Assembly (NCBI GenBank): GCA_029776225.1
Contig: JAKOTR010000043.1
Location: forward strand, 39,195 to 103,194
Length of the DNA stretch: 64,000 bases
Direction of reading: 5' to 3'
Origin: Acidobacteriota bacterium
GTDB taxonomy: Bacteria > Acidobacteriota > Terriglobia > Bryobacterales > Bryobacteraceae
Shown: one piece after another, positions 3,160-26,059 of the stretch
Layout of the letters: each line of letters begins with the position of its first letter
Position numbering within the stretch: position 1 is the stretch's first letter
Notes under the pieces: model-generated
What the model was told of the DNA's origin: nothing
Databases searched by the model: none
The model's input: the letters and a program-made list of their open reading frames with translations, nothing else
Made by a program: the position numbers and the translations under genes

Positions 3160-3843
3160 GTGTCAGCGCCGCAAAAAATGGAAACGTTCCGGCGCGTGCC
3201 GCTGTTCGCCGGGCTTACAGAAGAGGAACTGGCGTCTCTTGCCAGACGCGCGGTGGAAAAACGCTACTCCGCCGGCGAGGTGCTCTTCTATGAAGGCGAG
3301 CCGTGCACCGGGTTTTTCCTGATCGGGCAGGGATCGGTCAAGATCTACAAGACCTCGGGTTCCGGGCGCGAGATCATGCTGGCGATCGATACCGCCCCGT
3401 CCAGCGTGGCGGAGGTGCCGCTGTTTGACGGTGGTCCTTATCCGGCCACGGTGAGCGCGGTGAATGACGTGGTCGCCTACGTGGTGAGCAAGCAGGATTT
3501 CCATGCCGTGTGCCTGCAAAATCCCAACCTGCCTCTCAAAGTGCTGGCGGTGGTGGGGCGAAGGCTCAGGCACCTGGTGCGGATCGTGGAAAGCGTGACC
3601 TTCGGCAGCGTCCGCCAGAGGCTCGCGAGCGCGCTGCTGGAATTCGGCAACCAGGCCGGCTCGGACGTGTTCTCCCTCCCCGTTACCCACGAGGAACTCG
3701 CTTTGCGCCTCGGCACGGTGCGCGAAGTGGTCTCCCGAAATCTCAGCCGCTTTCAGGCCGAAGGCCTGCTGCGCGTCCAGCGGCGCGAGATCCATTTGCT
3801 GGACCGAGAGGGATTGCTCCGCGAGGCGGAAACCGAGTTGTAA
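3160..3843 (+). CDS. Crp/Fnr family transcriptional regulator (GTG start; alternative ATG at 3178)
   Basis: cNMP-binding-like N domain (LFAGLTEEELASLA...GEVLFYEGEP) and C-terminal HTH (THEELALRLGTVREVVSRNLSRFQAEGLL). Confidence 0.85.
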   Translation: MSAPQKMETFRRVPLFAGLTEEELASLARRAVEKRYSAGEVLFYEGEPCTGFFLIGQGSVKIYKTSGSGREIMLAIDTAPSSVAEVPLFDGGPYPATVSAVNDVVAYVVSKQDFHAVCLQNPNLPLKVLAVVGRRLRHLVRIVESVTFGSVRQRLASALLEFGNQAGSDVFSLPVTHEELALRLGTVREVVSRNLSRFQAEGLLRVQRREIHLLDREGLLREAETEL

Positions 3844-3867: not shown

Positions 3868-3881
3868 GTGACTTACGTCAC
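3868..3881. promoter_or_regulatory. Perfect dyad GTGAC-N4-GTCAC (FNR-box geometry), centred ~42 bp upstream of the hemerythrin ATG
   Basis: Sequence gtgacttacgtcac read directly. Same 14-bp dyad type recurs three times at 9059-9265. Confidence 0.5.
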
Positions 3882-3916
3882 TTCACTTGCCTGTATACGC
3901 GGGTTAAGCTGGAAAT

Positions 3917-4471
3917 ATGTACACCGTGGAACGACTGCTGCGCGTCTCACGGGGGGAAGAGAGCGCACGCACCACCATCGACTACCCTTTGGAGCATCTC
4001 GTGGCATGTCACCGGCGTATCGAGGAGCGCCTGGAGATGCTGGAACGCGCCGGCGCCCACCTTGCCGGACGCCCCGACGACGCCCTTGAGGCTATCGATG
4101 CCGCTTTTCGCTACTTCGACTCCAGCGGCGTGCTTCACACGGCCGACGAGGAGCAGAGCCTGTTTCCGCGGCTCCGCCCGCGCCTGCTGCCCGACGAGCT
4201 GGAGATGGTCGCCCGGCTCGACCGGGAGCACCGCGAAGCCGAGGCCCTTTACGCCGAGCTCAAGGCCGCCGTGGCGCGCCTTCGAAAAGATCCTCACAAC
4301 GAGCAGCTCGGAGAGGAGTACCGGAATCTTGTGAAGCGGTTCACCGAGCTGTACAACTCGCACATCAGGCTCGAGGACAACGAGCTCGTCCGCGTGGCGA
4401 AGCGAGACCTCACCCGCCAGGAACTGGACGCGATTTCCCGGGAAATGAAGCAGCGGCGGAATTTGTTCTGA
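3917..4471 (+). CDS. Hemerythrin-like (HHE cation-binding) domain protein
   Basis: H/E-rich helical signature (HLVACHRRIEERLE...DREHREAEALY...HIRLEDNEL). Confidence 0.7.
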   Translation: MYTVERLLRVSRGEESARTTIDYPLEHLVACHRRIEERLEMLERAGAHLAGRPDDALEAIDAAFRYFDSSGVLHTADEEQSLFPRLRPRLLPDELEMVARLDREHREAEALYAELKAAVARLRKDPHNEQLGEEYRNLVKRFTELYNSHIRLEDNELVRVAKRDLTRQELDAISREMKQRRNLF

Positions 4472-4959: not shown

Positions 4960-5847
4960 CTACTCGGGCTCGGGGTGGACGATGACGTCGGCGCCGGGCG
5001 CCACACTCTGAATCGCCCGCTCGATGTCCTCGGTCAATGCGTGCGCCGCGCGAAGCGACTGATCGCCGTCAACGAGCACGTGGACATCGACAAACAACCG
5101 GGGGCCGGAATAGCGAAGCCGCACGTTGTGGCAGTCCTTCACCCCTTCCACGGACTGGGCCGCCCCGGTGATCTTCTCCTCCAGGCCGGCCGGCGCGGTG
5201 TCGATCAGCGATGCAATGCTGCGCACCCCGAGCCTCACGCTGATCAGGATCACGATTCCCGCAACGATGATGGCGGCCACGGCGTCCGCCTGGCGCAGCG
5301 CTCCCAAGGCCGGCACCCGCTCCGAAATCAACACGCAGATGAGGCCGAGGATCACCACCGCCGAGCTCCAGATGTCCGTGCTGAAATGCAGCGCGTCAGC
5401 TTCGAGCGCCTGGCTGTTGTACTTGCGGGCCGCCCGGTAGAGCACACGGGAGCGCGAGGCGTCGACGATGATCGAGGTGATCATAACGGCAAACGACCAG
5501 AACGTCACCTCGATTTCGATTCTCTGTTCGATGAGGCGGCCTGCGGCGCCGTAGATAATCCACACGCACGTCGCCAGCAGCAGCATGGTCTCGAACAGGG
5601 CCGAGAGGTTCTCTACTTTTCCGTGGCCGTAGGTGTGCGAGCGGTCGGCGGGCTTACCCGAGATCCGCACCGAAACCCAGGTCATCAGGGCGGCTACAAG
5701 GTCCAGCCCGGAGTGCGCCGCCTCAGCGAGAATTCCAAGGCTGCCTGTGGCGGCGCCCACCAGGGCTTTGAAGGTAGTTAAACCGATGGCCGCCAGCACC
5801 GAACTCGCGGCGGCCCACCGTTTTTCTTTTTCCGCCCGTTCTGTCAA
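4960..5847 (-). CDS. Cation diffusion facilitator (CDF) family transporter; TTG start overlapping the upstream gene's stop
   Basis: CDF signatures (SLGILAEAAHSGLDLVAAL, HTYGHGKVENL). C-terminal cytoplasmic domain. Four-base overlap with the upstream gene implies co-transcription. Confidence 0.8.
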   Translation of the reverse strand: MTERAEKEKRWAAASSVLAAIGLTTFKALVGAATGSLGILAEAAHSGLDLVAALMTWVSVRISGKPADRSHTYGHGKVENLSALFETMLLLATCVWIIYGAAGRLIEQRIEIEVTFWSFAVMITSIIVDASRSRVLYRAARKYNSQALEADALHFSTDIWSSAVVILGLICVLISERVPALGALRQADAVAAIIVAGIVILISVRLGVRSIASLIDTAPAGLEEKITGAAQSVEGVKDCHNVRLRYSGPRLFVDVHVLVDGDQSLRAAHALTEDIERAIQSVAPGADVIVHPEPE

Positions 5848-8171
5848 GTCGAAAGGCCGATTTGGCAGAGGTGTTTCTCAAGCACCGTCTTTTCTTGGGC
5901 GAGATAGGCGCGGTTCCTGCGCGTGAGCTCGTCGAAATCAACCTTGTGAGCGTCGAACTCCGGTCCGTCCACGCAGGCGAACTTAACCTCCCCGCCTACG
6001 GTAACGCGGCAGCCGCCGCACATGCCAGTACCGTCCACCATGATTGGATTCAGGCTGGCAAAAGTAGGCACACCCCATTCGCGGGTGAGTTCGGCCGCAG
6101 CGCGCATCATCGGGATTGGCCCGATGACGTGGACAACACCGGGAGTGATTCCGCTCTGCTCCTTCCACGCGCGCATAAGCTGAACTACATTCCCATGGAA
6201 CGCGCCCGATCCGTCGTCAGTGGCCCAATGGACTTCATCGGCCACGGAGCGCAATTCTTCATCCAGGATAATATGGGCCGTTGACCGCGCTCCGCAGAGC
6301 GCAATCACGCGGTTGCCGGCCTCATGGAACGCCCGCACGACGGGCAGCAGTTCGGCCGTCCCCACACCGCCGGCGACGCAGAGCGCCGTGCCGACTTTTT
6401 CGATGGTGGCGGGAAGGCCCAGCGGGCCGAGCAGGTCCGCGATGTAATCGCCTGCCTCCAGCGACAGCGTCTGCCGCGAGGTTTTTCCGAGCGCCTGAAC
6501 AACGAGCCTGATGGTGCCCGCCGCGGGGTCGCCGTCCACCAGCGTGAGCGGGATGCGCTCGCTCTCGGGAGTGGGCCGCAGAATGATGAACTGCCCGGCC
6601 TTCCAGTGCCTGGCGATTTCGGGCGCCTCGATTTCCAGGCTGGCGATCTCAGGCGTGAGCAGGCGCTTGGAAACTACGCGGTTGCCGCGGCCATTGGTGG
6701 CGGTGGGTATCCCGGAAACGGCAACGCTCTTTGCTTTCGGGCGCAGTTCGCGGTCGATAGCCTCGGCGGCCGCCCGGCCGTCGCGCATCGCCAGGATCAC
6801 GGTAGCCCCGCCGCGCACAACATCCCCTCCGGCGTAGACGTTCGGCAGGCTGGTCCTGCCGGCCTCGTCGATGACAATCTTACCGCGTTTCGTAATCAGT
6901 GTCGGGGTGGCGCGCTGGACGGTGGGGTTCGGGCTCTGGCCGATTGCCATCACCACGGTATCCACCGGCATGCGGTACTCGGAACCGGGTATCGGAACGG
7001 GCCTGGGGCGCCCGGACTCGTCCGGCTCTCCAAGCTGCATGCGCTGGACTTCCATTTCCTTCAACACGCCGTTTTCGTCCCCGAACAGCCGGACGGGCAC
7101 GGCCAGAAACTCGAACTGGACGCCCTCCTCCTCGGCGTGCTCGATCTCTTCGAGGCGGGCGCGCAGCTCGGCCCGGCCGCGGCGGAACATGATGATGCTT
7201 TCACTGCCCAACCGCTTGGCCCAGCGCGCGGCGTCCATCGCGGAATTGCCGCCGCCGATGACCACGGTCCGCTTGCCCACGAGGACCGGCGTGTCACTCG
7301 CCGGGAATTCGTAGGCCTGCATGAGGTTGATCCGGGTCAAATACTCGTTGGCGGTATACACGCCCACCAGGTTCTCTCCCGGAATGCCCATCAGGTGGGG
7401 CAGGCCGGCGCCGGTGCCGATGAACACGGCGGAGTAGCCCCACTCGAAAAGCTCATCGATCGTGGCGGTCTTGCCCACGATGAAGTTGGTGCGGAACTCG
7501 ACTCCAAGCGCGCGAAGCCGCTCGATCTCCTCGTCGATAATCTGGCGCGGCAAGCGAAATGGCGGGATGCCGTAGGCCAGGACGCCGCCCAGCCTGTGCA
7601 GCGCCTCGAAAACCGTGACGCCGTAGCCTTTGCGCACAAGGTCGAAGGCGGCGATCAGCGAGGCGGGTCCGCTGCCGACCAGCGCTACTTTCAGGCCGTT
7701 GGGCGGTTCCACAGGGGGAAGCCGCCGGTCGCTCGAACTCCGCTGATAATCCGCCAGGAAACGTTCGAGCGAGCCGATCGCCACCGGCTCCAGCTTCGTT
7801 TTCGGATTGCCGAGCAGGCAAGCCTTCTCGCAGAACAACTCGTGCTGGCAAACGCGTCCACAGATGCCCGGAAATGGTGTGTACTTGCTGATGGTTTCAA
7901 AAGCGCCACCGAAGTCGCCCTCCACCATGCGGGCGATCACACTCTTGATATCGATGTGGAGCGGGCAGGCTTCCACGCATTTCGGATCCCTGCAATTCAG
8001 GCAGCGGAGCGCTTCGGTCCAAGCCTGCTCCTGGTCGAACCCCAACGCCACTTCTTCACACGTAGTGGTCCGCTTCACCGGATCCAGCAACGGAAGTTGC
8101 TGGCGCGGAATTTTGGGGTTGCGCTTGCGTTTTACCGTTGGCACAGGGGTCACGTCAGCTTTTTCGGGCAT
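5844..8171 (-). CDS. Fused NfnB/GltD-like (N-term) and NfnA/SudB/PyrK-like (C-term) oxidoreductase, single 775-aa polypeptide
   Basis: N-term: Cys clusters (CEEVALGF..CLNCRDPKCVEACP; CGRVCQHELFCEKAC) and two Rossmann folds (VALVGSGPASLIAAFDL; VVIGGGNSAMDAA) as in GltD/NfnB. C-term: FNR-like FAD/NAD module ending in a 2Fe-2S motif (MCGGCRVTVGGEVKFACVDGPEF). Confidence 0.8.
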   Translation of the reverse strand: MPEKADVTPVPTVKRKRNPKIPRQQLPLLDPVKRTTTCEEVALGFDQEQAWTEALRCLNCRDPKCVEACPLHIDIKSVIARMVEGDFGGAFETISKYTPFPGICGRVCQHELFCEKACLLGNPKTKLEPVAIGSLERFLADYQRSSSDRRLPPVEPPNGLKVALVGSGPASLIAAFDLVRKGYGVTVFEALHRLGGVLAYGIPPFRLPRQIIDEEIERLRALGVEFRTNFIVGKTATIDELFEWGYSAVFIGTGAGLPHLMGIPGENLVGVYTANEYLTRINLMQAYEFPASDTPVLVGKRTVVIGGGNSAMDAARWAKRLGSESIIMFRRGRAELRARLEEIEHAEEEGVQFEFLAVPVRLFGDENGVLKEMEVQRMQLGEPDESGRPRPVPIPGSEYRMPVDTVVMAIGQSPNPTVQRATPTLITKRGKIVIDEAGRTSLPNVYAGGDVVRGGATVILAMRDGRAAAEAIDRELRPKAKSVAVSGIPTATNGRGNRVVSKRLLTPEIASLEIEAPEIARHWKAGQFIILRPTPESERIPLTLVDGDPAAGTIRLVVQALGKTSRQTLSLEAGDYIADLLGPLGLPATIEKVGTALCVAGGVGTAELLPVVRAFHEAGNRVIALCGARSTAHIILDEELRSVADEVHWATDDGSGAFHGNVVQLMRAWKEQSGITPGVVHVIGPIPMMRAAAELTREWGVPTFASLNPIMVDGTGMCGGCRVTVGGEVKFACVDGPEFDAHKVDFDELTRRNRAYLAQEKTVLEKHLCQIGLST

Positions 8172-8309: not shown

Positions 8310-9008
8310 TTAGAGTTCCCTCAGTGCCCTGGGGAACAGCACGTTGTTTTCCAGGTGAATGTGCTGGTGAAGGTCCGCTTCCAGTTCCTGCAGTCCCGTG
8401 TAGAGGGCGCGGAAGGTCGCGCAGGCATCGGGCGGAAGCGTATAGTCGCTGGTGATTTTGCGCATCTGTGCAAGCGCTTCCCCGGCGCTGTCGTGCTCAT
8501 GGATCATCATCCGGATCGGATTTTCGATATGGCCGAAGGGCATCGGCTCGGGCGGGCGCCCCTCCTGGCGCGCGCGCTCGGCTGACTCGATGGCGGGGAA
8601 CAGGATGAACTCTTCCTTCCTGAGGTGAGTCAGAAGCTCGTTTTGCAGCCCCTCAAAAACTTCTTGGAGCCTCTTCAGCATCTCCCCGTGCGCCGCACTA
8701 TGAGCCTCGATGACGCGGGCGAGCCTGGCATCGAGCGCGGGCAGTTCCGCTTTCAGATATTCGTGGTGTGTCGAGACGATGTGGTCGGTCAGTTCGCAGA
8801 GCGCGGCTTTGGTCCAGTCCTTCTCCGGCGCGCGGGCGGCAGCCGCCTGCACTTCGGCCAGAACGGCTTCGGGTGAGAGGCCTCGCTCGCGGCAGACTTC
8901 CTCGAGCGGCCGGTTCCCGCCGCAGCAGTAATCGATCTTGTACTTCTCAAAGACCCGCACGGATGCCGGCTGTTCAGCCGCAATCTCCCCAACGGTTTGC
9001 CGATTCAT
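8310..9008 (-). CDS. ric: Iron-sulfur cluster repair di-iron protein (RIC / ScdA / YtfE family)
   Basis: N-terminal DYCCGG motif and hemerythrin-like His/Glu repeats (HHEYLKAELP...HEHDSAGE...HQHIHLENNVLFP). Confidence 0.85.
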   Translation of the reverse strand: MNRQTVGEIAAEQPASVRVFEKYKIDYCCGGNRPLEEVCRERGLSPEAVLAEVQAAAARAPEKDWTKAALCELTDHIVSTHHEYLKAELPALDARLARVIEAHSAAHGEMLKRLQEVFEGLQNELLTHLRKEEFILFPAIESAERARQEGRPPEPMPFGHIENPIRMMIHEHDSAGEALAQMRKITSDYTLPPDACATFRALYTGLQELEADLHQHIHLENNVLFPRALREL

Positions 9009-9058
9009 TTACATTCCACCTCCATCCCCATGCTAGGGCGCAAGGGCCGGCGCGCTCA

Positions 9059-9072
9059 GTGACGGCGGTCAC
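9059..9072. promoter_or_regulatory. Perfect GTGAC-N4-GTCAC dyad, ~57 bp upstream of the ric start
   Basis: Sequence gtgacggcggtcac read directly. Confidence 0.45.
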
Positions 9073-9175
9073 AAGGGCGCAAGGGGGCAGCGTGCTCAGG
9101 GACGGGGTCACAAGGCGCAACGCGCGGCGGGGCGCGGTAACAAGGGTCACAAGGGCGCAAAGGACAGCGGGCGCG

Positions 9176-9189
9176 GTGACGAGTGTCAC
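9176..9189. promoter_or_regulatory. Perfect GTGAC-N4-GTCAC dyad
   Basis: Sequence gtgacgagtgtcac read directly. Confidence 0.45.
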
Positions 9190-9251
9190 AAGACCGCAAG
9201 GGATGGCGGGCTTGCTGAGATGGGGCACAAGGCGCCAAGCATGTCGGCGCG

Positions 9252-9265
9252 GTGACGAGTGTCAC
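9252..9265. promoter_or_regulatory. Perfect GTGAC-N4-GTCAC dyad centred 41.5 bp upstream of the radical SAM ATG (9300)
   Basis: Sequence gtgacgagtgtcac read directly. Spacing to the ATG matches the hemerythrin site, suggesting class-II-like activation and short or absent leaders. Confidence 0.5.
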
Positions 9266-9299
9266 AGAAAAGTCCGGCGTTCGGGATTACCCTCAAAGC

Positions 9300-10379
9300 A
9301 TGAGAGACTTCTCGCAGGCGCCCTTTCTGGTGATCTGGGAGGTGACTCAGGCCTGCGATTTGGCCTGCGTGCACTGCCGCGCCTCGGCCGAACCCCGCCG
9401 GCATCCGCTCGAACTCACCACCGAAGAAGGGTTTCGATTGCTAGATGAAGTCCGGGAGTTCGGCGATCCGCTGGTGGTTTTTACGGGCGGCGACCCGCTG
9501 AAGCGCCCGGACCTGTTCGAACTTCTGAAATACAGCGTGGACCTGGGGTTGCGGACCACCGTGACGCCGAGCGCCACGCCGCTGCTGACCGCCGAAGCCA
9601 TCGAGCGGTTTCGCGACTGCGGCGTTTCGCGCATGGCCGTCAGCGTCGACGGACCGGACGCGGCCACGCACGACGATTTCCGCCGCGTGCCGGGGTCCTT
9701 TGACCGCACCATGTTCGCGCTGGAGCACGCCCGGCGCATCGGGCTTGAAACCCAGGTCAACACCACCGTGACCCGGCTGAACAGGGACACGCTGCCGCGG
9801 ATAGCCAATCTGGTCGCCGCGTCGGGCGCCCGTCTATGGAGTGTCTTTTTCCTGGTTGCGACCGGCCGCGCCCTCCGCACCGATGACCTGGACGCGGACG
9901 CCTACGAGGAAGTCTTTGCCTACCTCTACGAACTGTCGAAGACCGCGCCTTTCGACATCAAGACCACCGAAGCGCAGCATTACCGCCGCTACGTCGCGCA
10001 ACAGAGGAAGCGTGAGGGCGGCGCCGCAGGTTCTCCCAAGGCGCCGGCCGGCCCCATCCAGCGCCAGGCGGGCATCAACGACGGCAAGGGGTTTGTCTTC
10101 ATTTCCCACACGGGGGAGATCTATCCCAGCGGCTTTCTGCCCGTGTCAGGGGGAAACGTCCGGCAGGATTCGCTGGTTGAGGTCTACCGGACGTCCCCGC
10201 TGTTTGTGGCGTTACGGAACCCGGACCGGCTGCGGGGCAAGTGCAGAATCTGCGAATACAGGAACTTGTGCGGGGGATCGCGGTCGCGGGCTTACGCGCT
10301 GACGGGGGACTGGCTGGCGGAGGACCCCAAGTGCGCGTACGAGCCGCGCGACAGGCATGTTGCACTTGTTAACAGTTAG
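9300..10379 (+). CDS. Radical SAM / SPASM-domain protein (AhbD/NirJ/PqqE-like architecture), function unknown
   Basis: CDLACVHC (CX3CX2C) after VIWEVTQA. GGDPL SAM-binding motif. C-terminal Cys-rich SPASM region (CRICEYRNLCGGSRSRAYALTG...CAYEP). Start placed at ATG 9300 (the ORF's 9252 start lies inside the dyad site). Confidence 0.8.
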   Translation: MRDFSQAPFLVIWEVTQACDLACVHCRASAEPRRHPLELTTEEGFRLLDEVREFGDPLVVFTGGDPLKRPDLFELLKYSVDLGLRTTVTPSATPLLTAEAIERFRDCGVSRMAVSVDGPDAATHDDFRRVPGSFDRTMFALEHARRIGLETQVNTTVTRLNRDTLPRIANLVAASGARLWSVFFLVATGRALRTDDLDADAYEEVFAYLYELSKTAPFDIKTTEAQHYRRYVAQQRKREGGAAGSPKAPAGPIQRQAGINDGKGFVFISHTGEIYPSGFLPVSGGNVRQDSLVEVYRTSPLFVALRNPDRLRGKCRICEYRNLCGGSRSRAYALTGDWLAEDPKCAYEPRDRHVALVNS

Positions 10380-10614
10380 GATTGTTGCGCTTTGCGACTT
10401 TTGACCCATGGGTGAGGTATTTTGCCCCACTCATTGCGGAGAATCGCACCCGTTCCTCCGAATCCTCATTTGAGGCTCCTCTGCATCCCCATTGAAAAAT
10501 AAAAAGATTCCATACTTTCCGATCTGTATTAAGATGCATGAATGTTGGAGGTACGCCTGCTCGGAATCGCAGCGCACTATTGTGAGTTGGCTAGGTTATC
10601 TGGAGGATGCGTTT

Positions 10615-12657
10615 ATGCGCTCACGGTTTTCTTTTTCGATCGCGGTCAAACTCGTGCTTGTCCTCGCCTTCCTGGCGGGTTCCGCAATTCTGTTAAGTAG
10701 TTCCGATAAGCCCGCGTTCACCGCGATGGACAAGGCGTTCTACGCCGACGCCAATGCTATCAACTTCGTCCGGCCGGGCCTGGACATCAAAATCGAGTCG
10801 GCCAGCATTGAAGCCGACGGCACGATCAAGGCCCGGATCAAGGTGACGGACCCCAAGGGCCTGCCGCTGGACCTCGATGGGGTTACGACGCCGGGAACCA
10901 TTTCGACGCGTTTCGTGATCGGTGTCATTCCGAATGGGCAGAAGCAGTACATCTCCTACATCACCCGGCAGGTGACCAGCACGATCACGAATCAGACCGC
11001 CACCCAGGCCACTTACGATTCCGGCGGCACATTCACCAAAGAGGCCGACGGGGTCTACACATACACCTTCGGGGCGAAAGCGCCGGCCAATTTTGACCGC
11101 AGCGCGACGCACAGCATCGGCGTATGGGCGGCCCGCGACCTGAGCGAGTTCGATCTGGATGCCGTTGCGAATTACGACTCCGACGTGTTCCACTTCGTTC
11201 CCAACGGCAGCCCGGTGACGGTGACGCGCGACGTAATCCGCACCCAGAGCTGCAACAAGTGCCACGATCCGCTGTCGGCGCACGACGAACGGCAGGGCAT
11301 TGAACTGTGCAATATCTGCCACAACCCCCAGAGCAGCGATCCCGACACCGGCAACACAATCGACATGGTTGTGATGACCCACAAGATCCACATGGGCAAG
11401 GATCTGCCGAGTGTGAAGGCGGGCGGCAAGTATCAGCTCATTGGCTACCGCAACACGGTGTACGACTATTCCACTGTGGGCTTCCCGGCCGATGCCCGGC
11501 GCTGCACCTTCTGCCACGAGCAGAACACTGGCGCGGCGCAGGCTACCGCTTATCTGAAGCCGAGCCGCGTGGCCTGCGGCTCCTGCCACGACAACGTGAA
11601 CTTCGCCACGGGCGAGAACCACGTGAACCTTCCGCAGCTCAGCGATAACCTGTGCGCGAATTGCCACATCCCGCAGGGCGAGCTGGACTTCGACGCCTCG
11701 GTTATCGGCGCGCACACGATTCCGGAGTTCTCGAACGAGCTGCCCGGCACGGTCTTTGAGATCGTCGACGTTCGCGACGGCGAGGCGGGCAAGAATCCGA
11801 CCGTAACCTTTACGGTGAAGGATAAGGCCGGCAACCCGGTCACGGACATTTCCGGGATGCGCCTATCGCTCGTTCTGGCCGGGCCGACGACGGACTACTC
11901 CAGCTACGTTTCGGAGACCGCCAACGGCGCGCAGGGCTCGGGCGGAACCTATACCTACACCTTCAAGCAGGCGATCCCGGCTGATGCCAAGGGCACCTTC
12001 GCGGTGGGCATCGAAGGATACCGCACTGTAACCCTGCTCGAGGGGACCACGCGGCAGATGAGCGTTCGCGATGCCGGCATGAACAAGGTGTATTACTTCT
12101 CCGTGGACGGCTCGCCGGTCACTCCGCGCCGGCAGGTGGTGAGCCTGGAGAAGTGCAACTCCTGCCATGCGTCGCTCTCCGCGCACGGCGGCAATCGCAA
12201 CACGATCGAACAGTGCGTGCTTTGCCACAACCCGCTTAAGACCGACGCCGCCGCCCGGCCCGCCGAAGAGAAGCCGGACATGACCATCCAGATGGCCTAC
12301 ATGATCCACCGGATCCACACCGGCGAGGACAGCCCGTCCGAAATCGTGATCTACGGGCACAACAGCACCCGTTACGACTTCGGCCACGTCCGGTATCCGG
12401 GTGACAGGCGCAATTGCAACGCTTGCCACGTCAACGGTTCCGAACAGCTTCCGCTTTCGGAAAGCCTCCTGAACGTCAACAACCCGCGGGGGGTGTTGAA
12501 CCCGATGGGACCGGCTACGGCGGCCTGCACCGGTTGCCACACCAGCATAGCGGCGGCTTCGCACGCTTTGTCGAACACGACCCAGCTTGGGGAAGCCTGC
12601 GCCGCGTGCCACAAGACCGGCAACGAATTCAGCGTGCCGAAGGTACACGCACGTTAG
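10615..12657 (+). CDS. Decahaem c-type cytochrome, OmcA/MtrC-like (outer-membrane/extracellular type)
   Basis: 10 CXXCH motifs arranged 5 + (~150-aa haem-free beta-rich domain) + 5. Signal peptide MRSRFSFSIAVKLVLVLAFLAGSA. GGAGGA RBS 7 nt upstream of ATG 10615. The ORF-track 10492 start is a TTG extension into AT-rich promoter DNA. Confidence 0.75.
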   Translation: MRSRFSFSIAVKLVLVLAFLAGSAILLSSSDKPAFTAMDKAFYADANAINFVRPGLDIKIESASIEADGTIKARIKVTDPKGLPLDLDGVTTPGTISTRFVIGVIPNGQKQYISYITRQVTSTITNQTATQATYDSGGTFTKEADGVYTYTFGAKAPANFDRSATHSIGVWAARDLSEFDLDAVANYDSDVFHFVPNGSPVTVTRDVIRTQSCNKCHDPLSAHDERQGIELCNICHNPQSSDPDTGNTIDMVVMTHKIHMGKDLPSVKAGGKYQLIGYRNTVYDYSTVGFPADARRCTFCHEQNTGAAQATAYLKPSRVACGSCHDNVNFATGENHVNLPQLSDNLCANCHIPQGELDFDASVIGAHTIPEFSNELPGTVFEIVDVRDGEAGKNPTVTFTVKDKAGNPVTDISGMRLSLVLAGPTTDYSSYVSETANGAQGSGGTYTYTFKQAIPADAKGTFAVGIEGYRTVTLLEGTTRQMSVRDAGMNKVYYFSVDGSPVTPRRQVVSLEKCNSCHASLSAHGGNRNTIEQCVLCHNPLKTDAAARPAEEKPDMTIQMAYMIHRIHTGEDSPSEIVIYGHNSTRYDFGHVRYPGDRRNCNACHVNGSEQLPLSESLLNVNNPRGVLNPMGPATAACTGCHTSIAAASHALSNTTQLGEACAACHKTGNEFSVPKVHAR

Positions 12658-12762
12658 TTGATCCGGGTATAACTAGTAAACGTGCGCACACAACCTATGA
12701 AGCACACGGTCTTGCCGCCGTGGCTGTCGAACGCAAACCGCATTCCTCCTCCTCCTCCTCCA

Positions 12763-13737
12763 ATGCCGATCGGGAGGCCCTGGGCGGGCCTCCCGTGTGC
12801 GTTCGCAGCCATGGCGGCTCTTGTACTTTTTTCCGTTTCCCTCGCGGCCCAGCAGGACCAGGAGAGCGAGCAGACTCAGCAGGCCCAACAGACCCAGCAA
12901 CAGTTGCCTCCGGGCTACGCAGGTTCAGACGTCTGTCTGGGGTGTCACGACGACCTTGGAAAAGCGTTCACCAGAAATCCGCACCACCTTGTCGAGACGG
13001 GCAAGGCCAAGACCAAGACGAACTGGCAGGGCATGGCTTGCGAGTCCTGCCACGGGCCGGGCGCCAAGCACGCGGAAACCGTCTCGCCGTCCGACATCAT
13101 CAACCCGGCTAAGCAGACCGCGGCGAAGGCGAGCCAGAGTTGCCTGGCGTGCCATCTGAATAATCCCATCCACGCCGGGTGGGCCCGCAGCAGCCACAAC
13201 AAGAACCAGACTCCCTGTACCTCCTGCCATGCGATTCACAAGGGCCAGGAGGCGCTGCGTCCGGCGAGGTTCATGGAGATCAACAAGCTCTGCGCGAGTT
13301 GCCACACCTCGGTCTGGGCCCAGTTCGCCAAACCTTACAAGCACCGGCTGGACGTAGGGGCGATGTCGTGCACGGATTGTCACAATCCTCACGGGACGTT
13401 TCTGCCGGGCTCCGTCCGGACGGTGGCCGCCAACGAGCGTGCGTGCTACAAGTGCCACCCGGACAAGACCGGCCCGTTCCCGTTCCCGCATGCTCCGGTG
13501 CAACTGGAGGGCTGCGGGACGTGCCATGAGCCGCACGGCTCAGCGAACCCGCGGATGCTGACGCGCTCCGAGGTGCGGTTCGTGTGCCTGGAGTGCCACT
13601 CGAATATCACCGCGGGTAAAACGATTGGCGGGGTGCCGCCGGCATTTCACGATATCAGGAGCCCGCGTTTCCAAAACTGCACCATATGCCACACCAAGAT
13701 TCACGGTTCCTATGTGGATCCGGGGCTGGAGCGATAG
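12763..13737 (+). CDS. Periplasmic decahaem c-type cytochrome, MtrA/DmsE/PioA-like (start uncertain: 12697, 12763 or 12811)
   Basis: 10 closely spaced CXXCH motifs in ~300 aa. Signal peptide. Low-complexity Q-rich linker after the signal. Confidence 0.75.
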   Translation: MPIGRPWAGLPCAFAAMAALVLFSVSLAAQQDQESEQTQQAQQTQQQLPPGYAGSDVCLGCHDDLGKAFTRNPHHLVETGKAKTKTNWQGMACESCHGPGAKHAETVSPSDIINPAKQTAAKASQSCLACHLNNPIHAGWARSSHNKNQTPCTSCHAIHKGQEALRPARFMEINKLCASCHTSVWAQFAKPYKHRLDVGAMSCTDCHNPHGTFLPGSVRTVAANERACYKCHPDKTGPFPFPHAPVQLEGCGTCHEPHGSANPRMLTRSEVRFVCLECHSNITAGKTIGGVPPAFHDIRSPRFQNCTICHTKIHGSYVDPGLER

Positions 13738-13739
13738 CG

Positions 13740-15743
13740 ATGAGAGCACTTCTGATTATCCTGATCGCGCTTCCGCTTGCGGCCCAGGCGCCGGTCGGTT
13801 CGCAGGCGCCCGTACCGCCGCCGCCGAAGGACGCCATTCCTCTGGTGCAGCAGCCGGACCTCACCGCTCCGCCCGACGAGCCTTTCCTCACCGGCAACCT
13901 GGATGTCGGCTACCGCTGGGTCAGTGGCGTGGGCGGCGACTTCAACACCTATCGCAGCGTCGTGAACCTCGGCGACGGACCCAGGCTGTTCAACCTCGAC
14001 GCGGTCATCGTGCCGCCGGCGTGGAAGTTTGCCGACCGGATCCAGGTGAACGCGAACAACTGGGGCGGGGATCCGTATAACTTCGCCCGGGTGAGCGCGC
14101 GCAAGCTGGGTGTCTACGACTTCTACTGGAACTACCGCAACATCGCGTACTTCAATTTCCTGCCGTCGTTCGCCAATCCGAACCTGGAGCGCGGCATTTT
14201 TCTCAACCAGCGGGGCTTCGACACCTTCAAGCGGATCAACGACGCCGAGCTGGTGCTGAGGCCGGGGCGGAGCATCACTCCGTACGTCGCCTACAGCCGC
14301 AGCGGCGACCGCGGCACGGGCACCACGAACATTGTTCTGGAAAGCAACGAATACACCGTGCCGGACCGGATCGATAACAACGTCAATATCTACCGCGCCG
14401 GCAGCAGGTTCCAGTTCAACCGGTACAACCTGACGCTGGAAGCCGGCGGGATCTCCTACGACAACGACCAGCGCGTTGAGATCGGAGATACGCCGAATTT
14501 CGGCAACCGCACGACTCCCTTCTTGGGGCAGACTCTGTTTCTGACGCAGGGTTTGCAGAGCTACAACGTCAGCGGCAGCGGCGTCTTCACGCGGGGGATG
14601 TTTGCCGCGAACCCGGTGAATTGGGCCGATGTGTTCGGGCAATTCGAGTTCAGCCAACTGAAGAGCACGACCCGCTTCAGCGAGAACGCCGCCGGGAACC
14701 TGGTGAACCTGGCGGCGGTATCGTTCTTCAACGAACTGATCCGGACGGCGGACTCGCGCGTCAAGCAGCCGCACCCGTCGGGCCAGATCGGGGCCGAATT
14801 GCGGCCCACGCGATGGCTGCGCATCCTGGAGTTCGCCTCCACCAACCGCCTGCACAACGCCGGTACAGAACTGCTGATTGACCGCATGCTGTTTGCGGGC
14901 CTTCCGCCGACGGAAGAGGTCGTGAACCTGGCCGAGCGGCTGGAAGTGACCTACAACCAGCAGCAGGTGAACTTCCTGTTCGACGTCACGCCGAGGCTCA
15001 TGCTTCGAGCCGGGCACCGGTACGTCTGGGGAGAAGCGGAGGCGCCCGCCGCCCTTATCCTGGGGGGCGTGGGAACGGAATCGGCCAAACTGCGCAGGAA
15101 CGTGGCGCTGGCCGGAGCCACCTGGCGCAGCCCGCGCAAGCTGCGCGTCACGGTGGAGTACGAAGGCTCGCCGGGCGACCGTTCGTTCTTCCGCACCAGT
15201 GTGAACGAGTACCAGAAGGGGCGCGTGATGGCGCGCTATCAGGCGCTGCCCTCGCTGGCGCTAACCTTCAATTTCGGAATCTTCGACAACCACAACCCGG
15301 CGCCGAGCCAGTACGATTTCCAGAGCCGGGACGCCTCGCTTTCCGCCTACTGGGCGCCCCAGGGAGGCAAGCGGGTGAGTTTCATTGCCGAATACGCGCG
15401 GGCAACCGTGAGCTCGGATATCAGTTTCGTGGTGCCGAACACGCTTCAGGAGGCGCTCTCGGTTTATCGGGAACGTTCGCACACGGGACTGCTGCTTGCG
15501 GAATTCCCGCTTCCGGGGCGCGGGGTGTTCCAGCCCAGGCTGGATGTCGGGGGATCGCTGTTCTATTCGACGGGCACGCGTCCCTCGCGGTACTACCAGC
15601 CGTTCGGCAGGTTCCGCCTGCCCCTCGGCGAGCACGTCGCCTGGTACGGCGAGTGGCGGTGGTACGGCTTCACCCAGCCGACGTTCCTGTTTGAGGGATT
15701 CCGCTCCAACCAGGTGATCACCGGCCTGCGGTTCTTCATGTAG
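13740..15743 (+). CDS. Putative outer-membrane beta-barrel porin, MtrB/PioB-like (~667 aa)
   Basis: Signal peptide MRALLIILIALPLAAQA. No Cys. Rich in Y/F/N/G/S/T/R with aromatic C-terminus (GLRFFM). Sits directly downstream of two decahaem genes in mtrC-A-B order. Confidence 0.55.
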   Translation: MRALLIILIALPLAAQAPVGSQAPVPPPPKDAIPLVQQPDLTAPPDEPFLTGNLDVGYRWVSGVGGDFNTYRSVVNLGDGPRLFNLDAVIVPPAWKFADRIQVNANNWGGDPYNFARVSARKLGVYDFYWNYRNIAYFNFLPSFANPNLERGIFLNQRGFDTFKRINDAELVLRPGRSITPYVAYSRSGDRGTGTTNIVLESNEYTVPDRIDNNVNIYRAGSRFQFNRYNLTLEAGGISYDNDQRVEIGDTPNFGNRTTPFLGQTLFLTQGLQSYNVSGSGVFTRGMFAANPVNWADVFGQFEFSQLKSTTRFSENAAGNLVNLAAVSFFNELIRTADSRVKQPHPSGQIGAELRPTRWLRILEFASTNRLHNAGTELLIDRMLFAGLPPTEEVVNLAERLEVTYNQQQVNFLFDVTPRLMLRAGHRYVWGEAEAPAALILGGVGTESAKLRRNVALAGATWRSPRKLRVTVEYEGSPGDRSFFRTSVNEYQKGRVMARYQALPSLALTFNFGIFDNHNPAPSQYDFQSRDASLSAYWAPQGGKRVSFIAEYARATVSSDISFVVPNTLQEALSVYRERSHTGLLLAEFPLPGRGVFQPRLDVGGSLFYSTGTRPSRYYQPFGRFRLPLGEHVAWYGEWRWYGFTQPTFLFEGFRSNQVITGLRFFM

Positions 15744-24100: not shown

Positions 24101-25702
24101 TCAAGCCAGCCGGACTATCGCCGTGCTCATCGATATCGGCGGCAGATTGAGCCGGACGCGCGAGCCTTCCACCGACACCGGGTGGTCCTTCGGCACGATC
24201 ACGTTCGGATTTTCGAAGGTATTGCAGGCGTTGTAGTCCGGATGGGAGAGCAGTTGCGCCTTCGCGGAGACCGCCGAAGCGCCCACCAGCGCGCAGTCCA
24301 CCCTCATCTCCACGTCGTGCTTCGGGTTGCAGAAGGTGAGCACCAGTTCGTTATCCTTCCGCGAGGCCGATACCGAAATGCCCAGCGGCGAGGTGTCGTT
24401 CGTCTCCACCCGCAGCGCGGTCTTCGAGCGGTGCGGCTTCTGCAGCAGGAACGCGTAGTAGCTGGAAGTCCGGACGCAGTTGTTCCGGTGGGCCAGGATA
24501 ACGGAATGGAGCACGTTCACCGTCTGCGCGATGTTGCACATGTAGAGCTTGTCGGCCTGGCGGTGGAACACGTTCAGTCCCATTCCCGCCGCCACCGCGC
24601 TGCGCATTGTGCTCTGCATCCAGAGCCGGCCGTAGGTCTTTTCCTCCTCCGGAACCATTCGGTCCCACACGCCCCACTCGTCCACGAGCAGGTGGACCTG
24701 GGGCCGCGGCCGGCCGGGCGCCGTCTGCGCGCGCACGTAGCTGTCCAGAAGCCCGCGCTGCACCACGATGGCATTTTCCAGTTCCGCGAACGAGGACAAT
24801 TGCTCCCGCATGTTCTCGACGGTGAACTTTGTGGGCACGTCCCTGCCGTTCGAGTAGAAGTGCATCGCCCAGCCGTGCGGGTACAAGCCGGGTCCGCCGC
24901 GCGCCGAGAGAGCGTCAAAGAACCGGCGCGTCCAGTTCACATCGTTGCGGTTCGGCCCGCAGGCGATCATGAACGGGCGCGTTCCCCCGAAGTCCCGGAC
25001 GTAGGTGCGGAACCGGCGGTAGAGGTCGGCGTAATACTCCGGAGTCATGTTGCCTCCGCAGCCCCAGTTTTCGTTGCCGACGCCCCAATATCGCACGTTG
25101 AACGGCTCGGGAGAACCGTTCGCGGCGCGCTCGTCGGAAAGCGTGCTTCCGGAGGGATAGTTGCAGTACTCGACCCAGTCGCGCAGTTCCTGGGGGGTGC
25201 CGCTGCCGACGTTACCGGCCAGGTAGGGTTCCGCGCCGATGAGCCGGCACAGCCGGATAAACTCGTGCGTGCCGAAGCTGTTGTCTTCCGTGTAGTTGCC
25301 CCAGTGGATGTTGACCGTCTTCGGGCGTTTGTCGGCGGGGCCGATGCCGTCGCGCCAGTGATAATCGTCGGCAAAGCAGCCGCCCGGCCAGCGGAGCACC
25401 GGAATGCCGAGCTCCTTAAGCCAGTCGACCGCCTGTTTGCGGAAGCCCTCGACGTTAGGAACCGAAGAGTCCTTCCCTACCCAGAGACCGCCGTAGACGC
25501 AACTGCCCAGATGCTCGGCGAACGACCCGTGGAGCAGCGGGCTGATGGTTCCGATCTCGGCGGTGGCGTGGACGGCCACGCGCTGGTCCTGAGCTGGAGC
25601 CGAAAAGCCCTTGCGGGAGGTGATCACGGAGAAAAGCGCTGCGCCAGCGCCGCCGGCAAAGGCACGGCGGGAAAGAGTCTTATTCATAAGCCACCTCTTC
25701 AT
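24101..25702 (-). CDS. Alpha-L-arabinofuranosidase (GH51), Tat signal
   Basis: LRWPGGCFADDYHWRDGIGP and NENWGCGG motifs. SRRAFAGGAGAALF Tat signal. Start ATG 25702 or 25687, duplicated by a 15-bp tandem repeat. Confidence 0.8.
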   Translation of the reverse strand: MKRWLMNKTLSRRAFAGGAGAALFSVITSRKGFSAPAQDQRVAVHATAEIGTISPLLHGSFAEHLGSCVYGGLWVGKDSSVPNVEGFRKQAVDWLKELGIPVLRWPGGCFADDYHWRDGIGPADKRPKTVNIHWGNYTEDNSFGTHEFIRLCRLIGAEPYLAGNVGSGTPQELRDWVEYCNYPSGSTLSDERAANGSPEPFNVRYWGVGNENWGCGGNMTPEYYADLYRRFRTYVRDFGGTRPFMIACGPNRNDVNWTRRFFDALSARGGPGLYPHGWAMHFYSNGRDVPTKFTVENMREQLSSFAELENAIVVQRGLLDSYVRAQTAPGRPRPQVHLLVDEWGVWDRMVPEEEKTYGRLWMQSTMRSAVAAGMGLNVFHRQADKLYMCNIAQTVNVLHSVILAHRNNCVRTSSYYAFLLQKPHRSKTALRVETNDTSPLGISVSASRKDNELVLTFCNPKHDVEMRVDCALVGASAVSAKAQLLSHPDYNACNTFENPNVIVPKDHPVSVEGSRVRLNLPPISMSTAIVRLA

Positions 25703-26059
25703 AAGCCACCTCGCTGAAATTGAGAGCGGCTCGCGCCGTCCTGAAATCGGATCGAGTATATTGCAATGGCGGCCAGCCGTGCAAGCGCTTTCAGCGCCCT
25801 TTTCGCCCGAGTTCTGCCCGCCGGTCATCGTCGCCAGGGGAATTGGAATGAAGTGTTGAGGGAGATGGGAGAAGGCCGAGGTGGCCGGCGAGTGCGCCGC
25901 CTGCGTGCCGGCCCGAAAACCTCCTGACTAAACCGTCCGCAACTCATCACCGGCCGGTTTGCTCCTGTGCGCGTTCGCTATTGATGGGTGACGGTCCTGC
26001 CCGGGACTGCACGGAAGCGTGCTCTGCCGCGTCTTGCTGGTGTGGGAGAATTTGGTTGT

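Follow-up and report, generated by a model that had tools for sequence, protein, structure and literature searches.

Tandem amplification of a putative CRP-type operator segment between divergent RIC and radical-SAM genes in a Bryobacteraceae lineage

Introduction

Intergenic minisatellites (VNTRs) occur in bacteria, as exemplified by the mycobacterial MIRU. For divergent promoters, Saunders and co-workers reportedly described in 1999, for the nirI-nirS pair of Paracoccus denitrificans, an intergenic NNR box that is shared by both promoters and located at −41.5. Within the Crp/Fnr family, HcpR was predicted to regulate dnrN in some taxa (Rodionov et al., 2005; PMC1274295). The residues R180, E181 and R185 of CRP are the positions that read GTGA, and they were used to explain the HcpR motifs, including the HcpR2 motif GTAAC-N4-GTTAC (Rodionov et al., 2005; PMC1274295). 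For Drosophila, statistical evidence was obtained that clusters of binding sites formed by local duplication; none was obtained for yeast, and bacteria were outside the analysis (Nourmohammad and Lassig, 2011; PMC3188502). This mode of local duplication was treated as specific to higher eukaryotes (PMC3188502).

The locus described here lies in a window of 64 kb, which is the whole stretch of DNA that was analyzed (64,000 nucleotides), from a metagenome-assembled genome of the Bryobacteraceae. Its components are all of known kinds, namely predicted class II Crp/Fnr promoters, a putative HcpR-like regulon and intergenic tandem repeats. As such, the locus represents a clear but fairly commonplace tandem duplication of regulatory DNA rather than a system of a new type.

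Organization of the locus

The repeats are located in a spacer of 291 nt (9009-9299) between a divergent gene pair. The gene on the reverse strand (8310..9008) encodes a RIC/YtfE/ScdA-type di-iron Fe-S repair protein of 232 aa, which matched TIGR03652 with 251.5 bits (cut-off 204.7) as well as the Pfam families ScdA_N and Hemerythrin. The gene on the forward strand (9300..10379) encodes a radical SAM/SPASM protein of 359 aa, assigned by TIGR04053 (475.6 bits, cut-off 395) and Pfam matches. It is the first gene of an operon, which continues on the same strand with MtrC-like, multihaem and MtrB/PioB-like genes according to Pfam (10492-15743). The gene order of the operon is equal in the relatives L083, L087, L089 and L090.

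The products of this conserved operon (9300-15743) are, in order, the TIGR04053 radical SAM/SPASM protein (AhbD/NirJ-like), an MtrC/MtrF-like multihaem cytochrome, an NrfB/c7-like multihaem cytochrome and a weakly matching MtrB/PioB-like porin. The operon resembles an extracellular electron conduit of the Mtr type, and it seems to share with RIC the control by one Crp-family box. On the other side of the spacer, two genes in the orientation of RIC come after it, one for a 775-aa fusion protein (5844-8171, reverse strand) and then one for CDF cation efflux (4960-5847, reverse strand). The fusion joins an NADPH-dependent glutamate-synthase-like (GltD/NfnB-like) module to a DHOD-B/sulfide-dehydrogenase-like FAD/NAD-binding module and may be a redox partner linked to RIC. 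The order RIC, fusion, CDF is kept in L083 and L089.

Periodicity and units of the array

The spacer is filled by six head-to-tail units of 39, 39, 39, 39, 39 and 37 nt (9035-9266). Tandem Repeats Finder reported a period of 39 with 5.4 copies, 68% matches and a score of 123 for positions 9059-9266, together with a second call of period 40 and score 121 for positions 9035-9120. No other array scoring above 60 was found in the 64-kb window by the same program. A perfect 15-nt tandem duplication (TTCATAAGCCACCTC, twice) with a score of 60 is located at 25683-25712.

The autocorrelation of the spacer was 0.456, 0.446 and 0.477 at offsets of 39, 78 and 117 nt, respectively. As a null, 2000 dinucleotide-preserving shuffles of the 291-nt spacer were analyzed using the best value over all offsets, which resulted in a mean of 0.375 and a maximum of no more than 0.452. 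The periodicity of the spacer is beyond chance. The comparison of two-unit and three-unit blocks resulted in identities of ~70-74% throughout and revealed no clear hierarchy of higher order, though the autocorrelation was highest at offset 117.

The core GTCACAAGG(G)CGCAAGG starts at 9068, 9107, 9146, 9185, 9224 and 9261. These starts reproduce the spacings of 39, 39, 39, 39 and 37 nt given in a first-pass annotation of the window, and the Tandem Repeats Finder run that it had suggested returned the significant period of 39 described above. Its array boundaries of 9059-9290 had to be revised, since the single-copy relatives give the register 9035-9266.

In this register, unit 1 (9035..9073, 39 nt) carries a perfect dyad at 9059-9072, is identical to the single unit of L083 at 36 of 39 positions and has the same distance to RIC as in the relatives. 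It is the putative working RIC operator plus promoter spacer. Unit 2 (9074..9112, 39 nt) has a broken dyad, GGGAC-GGG-GTCAC, with a spacer of 3 nt. Unit 3 (9113..9151, 39 nt) carries the dyad GTAACAAGGGTCAC (GTAAC-AAGG-GTCAC) at 9137-9150 with one mismatch. Unit 4 (9152..9190, 39 nt) has the perfect dyad GTGACGAGTGTCAC at 9176-9189, and in unit 5 (9191..9229, 39 nt) the dyad is lost (GAGAT-GGG-GCAC). Unit 6 (9230..9266, 37 nt) carries a perfect dyad at 9252-9265 and is the candidate working operator of the radical-SAM operon; between its dyad centre and the A of the start codon of that operon there are 41.5 nt. Units 4 and 6 have in common the exact 21-mer GGCGCGGTGACGAGTGTCACA, which is located at 9170 and 9246. 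Pairwise, the units are 65-85% alike.

The full GTGAC-N4-GTCAC dyad is thereby confirmed for units 1, 4 and 6, as had been annotated, and unit 5 contains the described GGCAC variant. The description of units 2, 3 and 5 as keeping only the right half-site does not apply to unit 3 with its nearly complete dyad, and unit 2 differs by its shortened spacer in addition to GGGAC. The duplicated oligomer was correctly described as exact and 76 bp apart; it is a 21-mer and not a 20-mer. A CRISPR array, already dismissed in the first-pass annotation, was rejected as well: the units abut head to tail without unique spacers, they are imperfect copies of one another, and the neighboring genes encode RIC, a radical SAM protein and cytochromes.

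Outside of the array, the core was not found in the 64 kb with up to three mismatches. A metagenome scan with the repeat core returned 11 unrelated loci, which lack dyads and RIC, radical-SAM or Crp genes; these correspond to chance matches plus (CAAGGGCG)n microsatellites. A scan with the left-flank pattern resulted in 0 matches in that collection, from which the species is absent. A dispersed repeat family (REP/MIRU/MITE) was rejected on the grounds of the confinement of the core to the array within the window and the unrelatedness of the metagenome matches.

Unrelated metagenome contigs contain 8-nt microsatellites of the type (CAAGGGCG)n or (CARGGNCG)n with up to ~18 copies (L103:1436-1454, L105:2172-2190 and L106:454-497, including the surrounding 100-200 nt). 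The 5′ part of the 39-nt unit contains this octamer twice in tandem (CAAGGGCG CAAGGG). At offset 8, the autocorrelation of the spacer is weak (0.357; shuffle mean of 0.283, measured at offset 39). The octamer in the unit may be either a coincidence or a slippage-prone motif.

The dyad as a CRP-type box and its presumed regulator

The dyad GTGAC-N4-GTCAC is equivalent to GTGA-N6-TCAC, a CRP-type box. Perfect boxes were found in the window at 9059, 9176, 9252 and 3868. The last of these, GTGACTTACGTCAC (3868..3881), is a single dyad between a regulator gene and a hemerythrin gene. The regulator gene (3160..3843, forward strand) is an ORF of 227 aa (221 aa in public assemblies) with the domains cNMP_binding and HTH_Crp_2, and its product, a Crp/Fnr-family regulator, is presumed to bind the dyad. 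The hemerythrin gene (3917-4471, forward strand) is preceded by TAAGCT at 3905-3910, and the dyad centre is located 42.5 nt from its ATG. Of the NO-stress genes that characterize HcpR/DNR/NnrR-type regulons (hcp, dnrN/RIC, nnrS, hmp and nor), RIC carries the box, as does the hemerythrin gene; none of hcp, hmp and nor was identified beside a box of the window.

The recognition helix of the regulator, TVREVVSRNL (T-V-R-E-V-V-S-R), contains the R, E and R of the CRP type. Since R-E-x-x-x-R is kept, the regulator retains the three CRP positions that read GTGA. The pair that binds the cyclic phosphate is R82-S83 in E. coli and R-T in M. tuberculosis. This Arg-Thr/Ser pair is replaced by Tyr-Pro in the regulator ('pgpRTssat' in the M. 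tuberculosis Crp versus 'ggpYPatvs'), and the NCBIfam CRP model was matched with 61 bits at a cut-off of 266. Due to these two findings, an identity as cAMP-CRP proper was ruled out.

For the conservation of the box, 80 RIC-homolog loci of Acidobacteriota (plus a few of Planctomycetota) were surveyed, allowing one mismatch at most and a maximal distance of 350 nt upstream of RIC. The box was found upstream of RIC in ~70 of the 80 loci; it mostly occurs once, with 60-110 nt between it and the start codon. A homolog of the regulator adjoins RIC in ~45 of the 80. Here (among L003-L082), the Crp-family gene is located directly upstream of RIC with GTGAC-N4-GTCAT/C in between, the commonest form being GTGACAAAAGTCAT. 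The scan of genome contigs with RIC returned only relatives of up to 56% identity and was used for the conservation of the motif, not for the history of the array. By this conservation, the box is a phylogenetically conserved cis-element of a putative Crp-family/RIC regulon, and the acidobacterial regulon motif is apparently widespread and undescribed. In one Acidobacteriaceae MAG (L039), a 96-nt unit is repeated twice (81% matches, Tandem Repeats Finder score 257). This repeat comes after the Crp homolog and lies ~312-500 nt upstream of RIC (~5471-5658 of that locus); its sequence is unrelated to the 39-nt unit.

Promoter geometry

The RIC Shine-Dalgarno sequence GGAGGTGG (9016..9023, reverse strand) was read from the sequence and is conserved in L083 and L087. 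The predicted −10 hexamer of RIC is TAGCAT (9030..9035, reverse strand), which is located 23 nt from the dyad of unit 1 and gives a predicted start at ~9023-9024. This start is ~42 nt from the dyad centre and just ahead of the Shine-Dalgarno sequence. The hexamers at the −10 position in L083, L087, L089 and L090 are TAGTAT, GAACAT, TACTAT and TACCAT, respectively, and a −10-like element was found at a distance of 22-23 nt from the dyad in five orthologs.

For the radical-SAM gene, the predicted −10 hexamer is TACCCT (9288..9293, forward strand), which ends 6 nt before the ATG. A TAnnnT hexamer was found at the same place in L083, L087, L089, L090 and L003. The hexamers at −12..−7 are TACCCT, TACCTT, TAAGCT, TAACCT or TAGGCT, and no Shine-Dalgarno sequence is present. 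The distance between the dyad centre and the A of the ATG is 41.5 nt in five of six close orthologs and 42.5 nt in the sixth. The same geometry was observed in the Acidobacteriaceae loci L019, L024 and L034, where the hexamer, identified by eye, is TGAAAT. Since the dyad would be at the class II position, with the predicted start on the start codon, the radical-SAM mRNA is probably leaderless. Genes of this kind with TAnnnT ~12 nt upstream were predicted to be common in Acidobacteria (13% of the genes; PMC3160421), so a leaderless radical-SAM gene would not be unusual.

Like the radical-SAM gene (region 9252-9302), the hemerythrin gene (region 3868-3919) seems to be leaderless: TAnnnT precedes the ATG by exactly 6 nt, a Shine-Dalgarno sequence is absent, and 41.5-42.5 nt separate the dyad centre from the A. 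This leaderless pattern is kept across two acidobacterial families (L083, L087, L089, L090, L003, L019, L024 and L034).

A full sigma-70 promoter was not found by a consensus scan, which is expected for activator-dependent promoters. In the relatives, the single dyad is located ~42 bp from both predicted start sites, which would correspond to a shared back-to-back class II arrangement. In the window, the geometry of RIC is kept by unit 1 and that of the radical-SAM gene by unit 6. Reading the sequence beside the interior units revealed no −10-like element at the matching distance on either side. Between RIC and the radical-SAM gene, L019, L024 and L034 have two separate and unrelated dyads 57 bp apart, which indicates that one box per promoter is a viable architecture.

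Single-copy relatives and origin of the array

Relatives of the locus were found at radical-SAM protein identities of 92% (L083-L086), 84% (L087, L088), 82% (L090), 81% (L089) and 72% (L003). Their gene order is as in the window, namely RIC and, divergently, the radical-SAM, MtrC-like, multihaem and porin-like genes. The spacers between RIC and the radical-SAM gene have a length of ~92-110 nt (98 bp in L083), and exactly one unit is present in each of them, which is AGGGCGCAAGGCGCGGCGCGCTCAGTGACGGGGGTCACA in L083. The flanks are colinear with and nearly identical to those in the window. In the MAFFT alignment, every relative shows one gap of 193 nt; this equals 39×4+37, that is, the five extra units. 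Intermediate relatives of 92-100% identity were not found among 5.8 billion proteins.

Tandem Repeats Finder, applied to ~97 RIC-upstream regions, detected the array in this species only. Given the five single-copy outgroup lineages, a gain in the lineage of this species is the parsimonious reading. The comparison with the relatives shows that a resident 39-bp segment, a putative operator/promoter, was amplified in tandem from one to six copies and thereby gave rise to the array. The first-pass annotation had proposed a locally amplified operator array and a comparison of orthologous regions for copy number, and both proved well founded: there is one unit in the relatives and six here.

The contig of L083, the closest relative (GCA_050261015.1, JBLNCW010000086.1), is labelled 'Rhodospirillales bacterium' in NCBI. 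Since the locus is syntenic with this Bryobacteraceae locus and 92% identical in protein sequence, L083 is probably a mis-binned or mis-labelled MAG contig.

Within the species, nine assemblies from JGI, ENA, NCBI and Logan were compared, which represent different samples and assemblers (SPAdes and MEGAHIT among them); seven further loci had been fetched via RIC and radical-SAM protein variants. The 291-nt spacer is identical in all nine, with no difference in copy number or sequence, a comparison of low power as the strains are near-clonal (99.8-100% nucleotide identity of the radical-SAM gene). The assemblies show that the array is real and fixed in the species. Together with the divergence between the units, this argues for an old and stable array and against a hypervariable repeat or an artefact.

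Age and decay of the copies

The identity of units 1 to 6 to the L083 unit is 92%, 85%, 78%, 77%, 68% and 71%, respectively. The falling identity fits the assumption that unit 1 would serve as the whole RIC promoter spacer, whereas unit 6 would need the box only. The 21-mer common to units 4 and 6 points to a later two-unit duplication or to gene conversion.

At third codon positions, the divergence from L083 was 16.7-17.6%, and the divergence from unit to unit was of this size or larger (15-35%). This would be compatible with an amplification near the split from L083, with fast evolution inside the array, or with the collapse of an older array in L083. The last of these is unparsimonious because four further outgroups are single-copy.

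Mismatches in the interior units were less frequent in the dyad columns (12%) than in the other columns (23-32%), with a Fisher p of 0.02 using L083 as the reference and 0.17 using the consensus. At best, this difference speaks weakly for selection acting on the interior sites.

Proposed history and alternative explanations

The following history is proposed. In the ancestral state, as seen in the relatives, RIC and the divergent radical-SAM gene have a single CRP-type box between them, which is located ~42 bp from either predicted start. A single dimer of the nearby Crp-family regulator would thereby have served two physically overlapping class II-type promoters with starts ~84 bp apart. The segment that starts just within the −10 element of RIC and extends to the right-hand boundary of the box was then duplicated repeatedly, by which 193 bp were added. 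In this process, the box of unit 1 kept its ancestral spacing to the −10 element of RIC, and the box of unit 6 kept its ancestral spacing to the −10 element and the ATG of the radical-SAM gene. Each promoter would have gained a private operator, 193 bp apart from the other, and the promoters would have ceased to overlap. The interior copies seem to be decaying, with units 2 and 5 dead, one mismatch in unit 3 and unit 4 intact. Most likely, these copies are remnants that contribute little or nothing, and the regulator may still bind at units 3 and 4. Judged from the sequence comparison, the locus is best described as a fixed, decaying duplication that would have split one shared operator into two private ones. 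As a whole, this explanation by lineage-specific tandem amplification, with the interior copies as relics, is considered probable.

The first-pass annotation had left the function open between cooperative sites, decoy sites and a minisatellite. In an adaptive operator cluster, units 3 and 4, and perhaps weak half-sites in units 2 and 5, would bind extra dimers, resulting in higher occupancy, cooperative or ultrasensitive induction or titration, and the cluster would be maintained by selection. The perfect dyad of unit 4, the nearly perfect one of unit 3, the lower divergence of the interior dyad columns relative to L083, a possible renewal of a site by the later duplication or conversion of the 21-mer and the fixation in nine out of nine assemblies are consistent with such a cluster. 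However, the dyad is gone from two of the four interior units, and the excess of conservation is borderline (p = 0.17 with the consensus as the reference) and varies with the alignment. In addition, the non-dyad motif AGGGCGCAAGG is kept about as well as the dyad, yet is unconserved in other species. Relative to the predicted start of the radical-SAM gene, the intact interior sites are at upstream distances of 117.5 and 156.5 bp, beyond the range of −60 to −103 in which tandem CRP/FNR sites are known to synergise. Furthermore, no such array was found in other lineages among ~88 surveyed. An operator cluster is therefore regarded as unlikely. A further reading is an adaptive amplification, in which the separation of the overlapping, mutually exclusive promoters would let RIC and the radical-SAM/Mtr-like operon fire independently, with units 3 and 4 as extra regulator sites that sharpen the response. 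This version is rather doubtful, and we would give it little weight; if true, a regulatory module would have been built in a bacterium through duplication in place, a mode that was proposed as typical of higher eukaryotes (PMC3188502).

A hypervariable minisatellite (VNTR or contingency locus), in which frequent changes in copy number tune or switch the flanking genes, has in its favor the head-to-tail repeats in a promoter region, which is the general architecture of promoter VNTRs. It is opposed by the nine independent assemblies, which are identical in copy number and sequence, by the divergence of the units (65-85% alike), which makes them poor substrates for slippage, and by the lack of dispersed units elsewhere in the 64 kb. 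A minisatellite of varying copy number is thus very improbable. The options that had been left open are refined by the end copies, which are at the ancestral positions relative to each gene, by the two dead interior copies and by the constant copy number in the nine assemblies. Only its repetitiveness would suggest that the array is a foreign or unrelated element, such as a CRISPR remnant, a REP/MITE insertion, iterons, a structured RNA or an assembly artefact. Against this, every unit has its homolog in the sequence that the relatives carry there in single copy, unique spacers are lacking, Rfam gave no match at E ≤ 1, no replication genes are nearby, and the sequence was reproduced by SPAdes, MEGAHIT, JGI and Logan assemblies. 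Such an origin has next to no credibility. The tandem amplification of the resident segment is hence retained as the preferred reading.

Comparison with known systems

The arrangement resembles class II Crp/Fnr promoters, since a palindromic 5-N4-5 box is located ~41.5 bp upstream of the predicted starts, a Crp/Fnr-family gene is nearby and there is no −35 consensus. It is also like shared-box divergent promoters, as the relatives of this locus have one box midway between two divergent genes. In contrast to these, the box of this species is six-fold, with one copy per promoter, 193 bp apart; both the starts and the binding are predicted here. One shared operator in one species and six tandem copies in its sister species (92% protein identity) form a natural before-and-after pair. 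The locus is chiefly of value as a natural experiment that sets shared operators against private ones and bears on whether back-to-back class II promoters interfere and whether duplication relieves this or changes the dose response.

As in the HcpR, DNR and NnrR regulons of nitrosative stress, a Crp/Fnr-family regulator is linked to dnrN/RIC. The geometry of the box is identical to that of HcpR2, GTAAC-N4-GTTAC (PMC1274295), and the regulator has a helix with the CRP-like R180/E181/R185, as in the Desulfovibrio HcpR. Unlike in HcpR, the half-site is GTGAC and not GTAAC, and the likeness is one of motif and helix. The putative regulon also differs from HcpR regulons in taking in a hemerythrin and the radical-SAM/Mtr-like cytochrome operon. 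With the box, a conserved Crp-family element is defined for the RIC regulon of the Acidobacteriota.

The array is similar to intergenic minisatellites with respect to the imperfect tandem units of ~40 bp in an intergenic region. It is unlike the MIRU type in being a single locus in which no copy-number polymorphism was found and the unit of which is derived from the local promoter/operator. As in the regulatory modules of Drosophila, neighboring sites for one factor share descent via local duplication and then diverged by point mutation. Unlike in Drosophila, the duplication is still visible here as a clean tandem array, and it is found in a bacterium.
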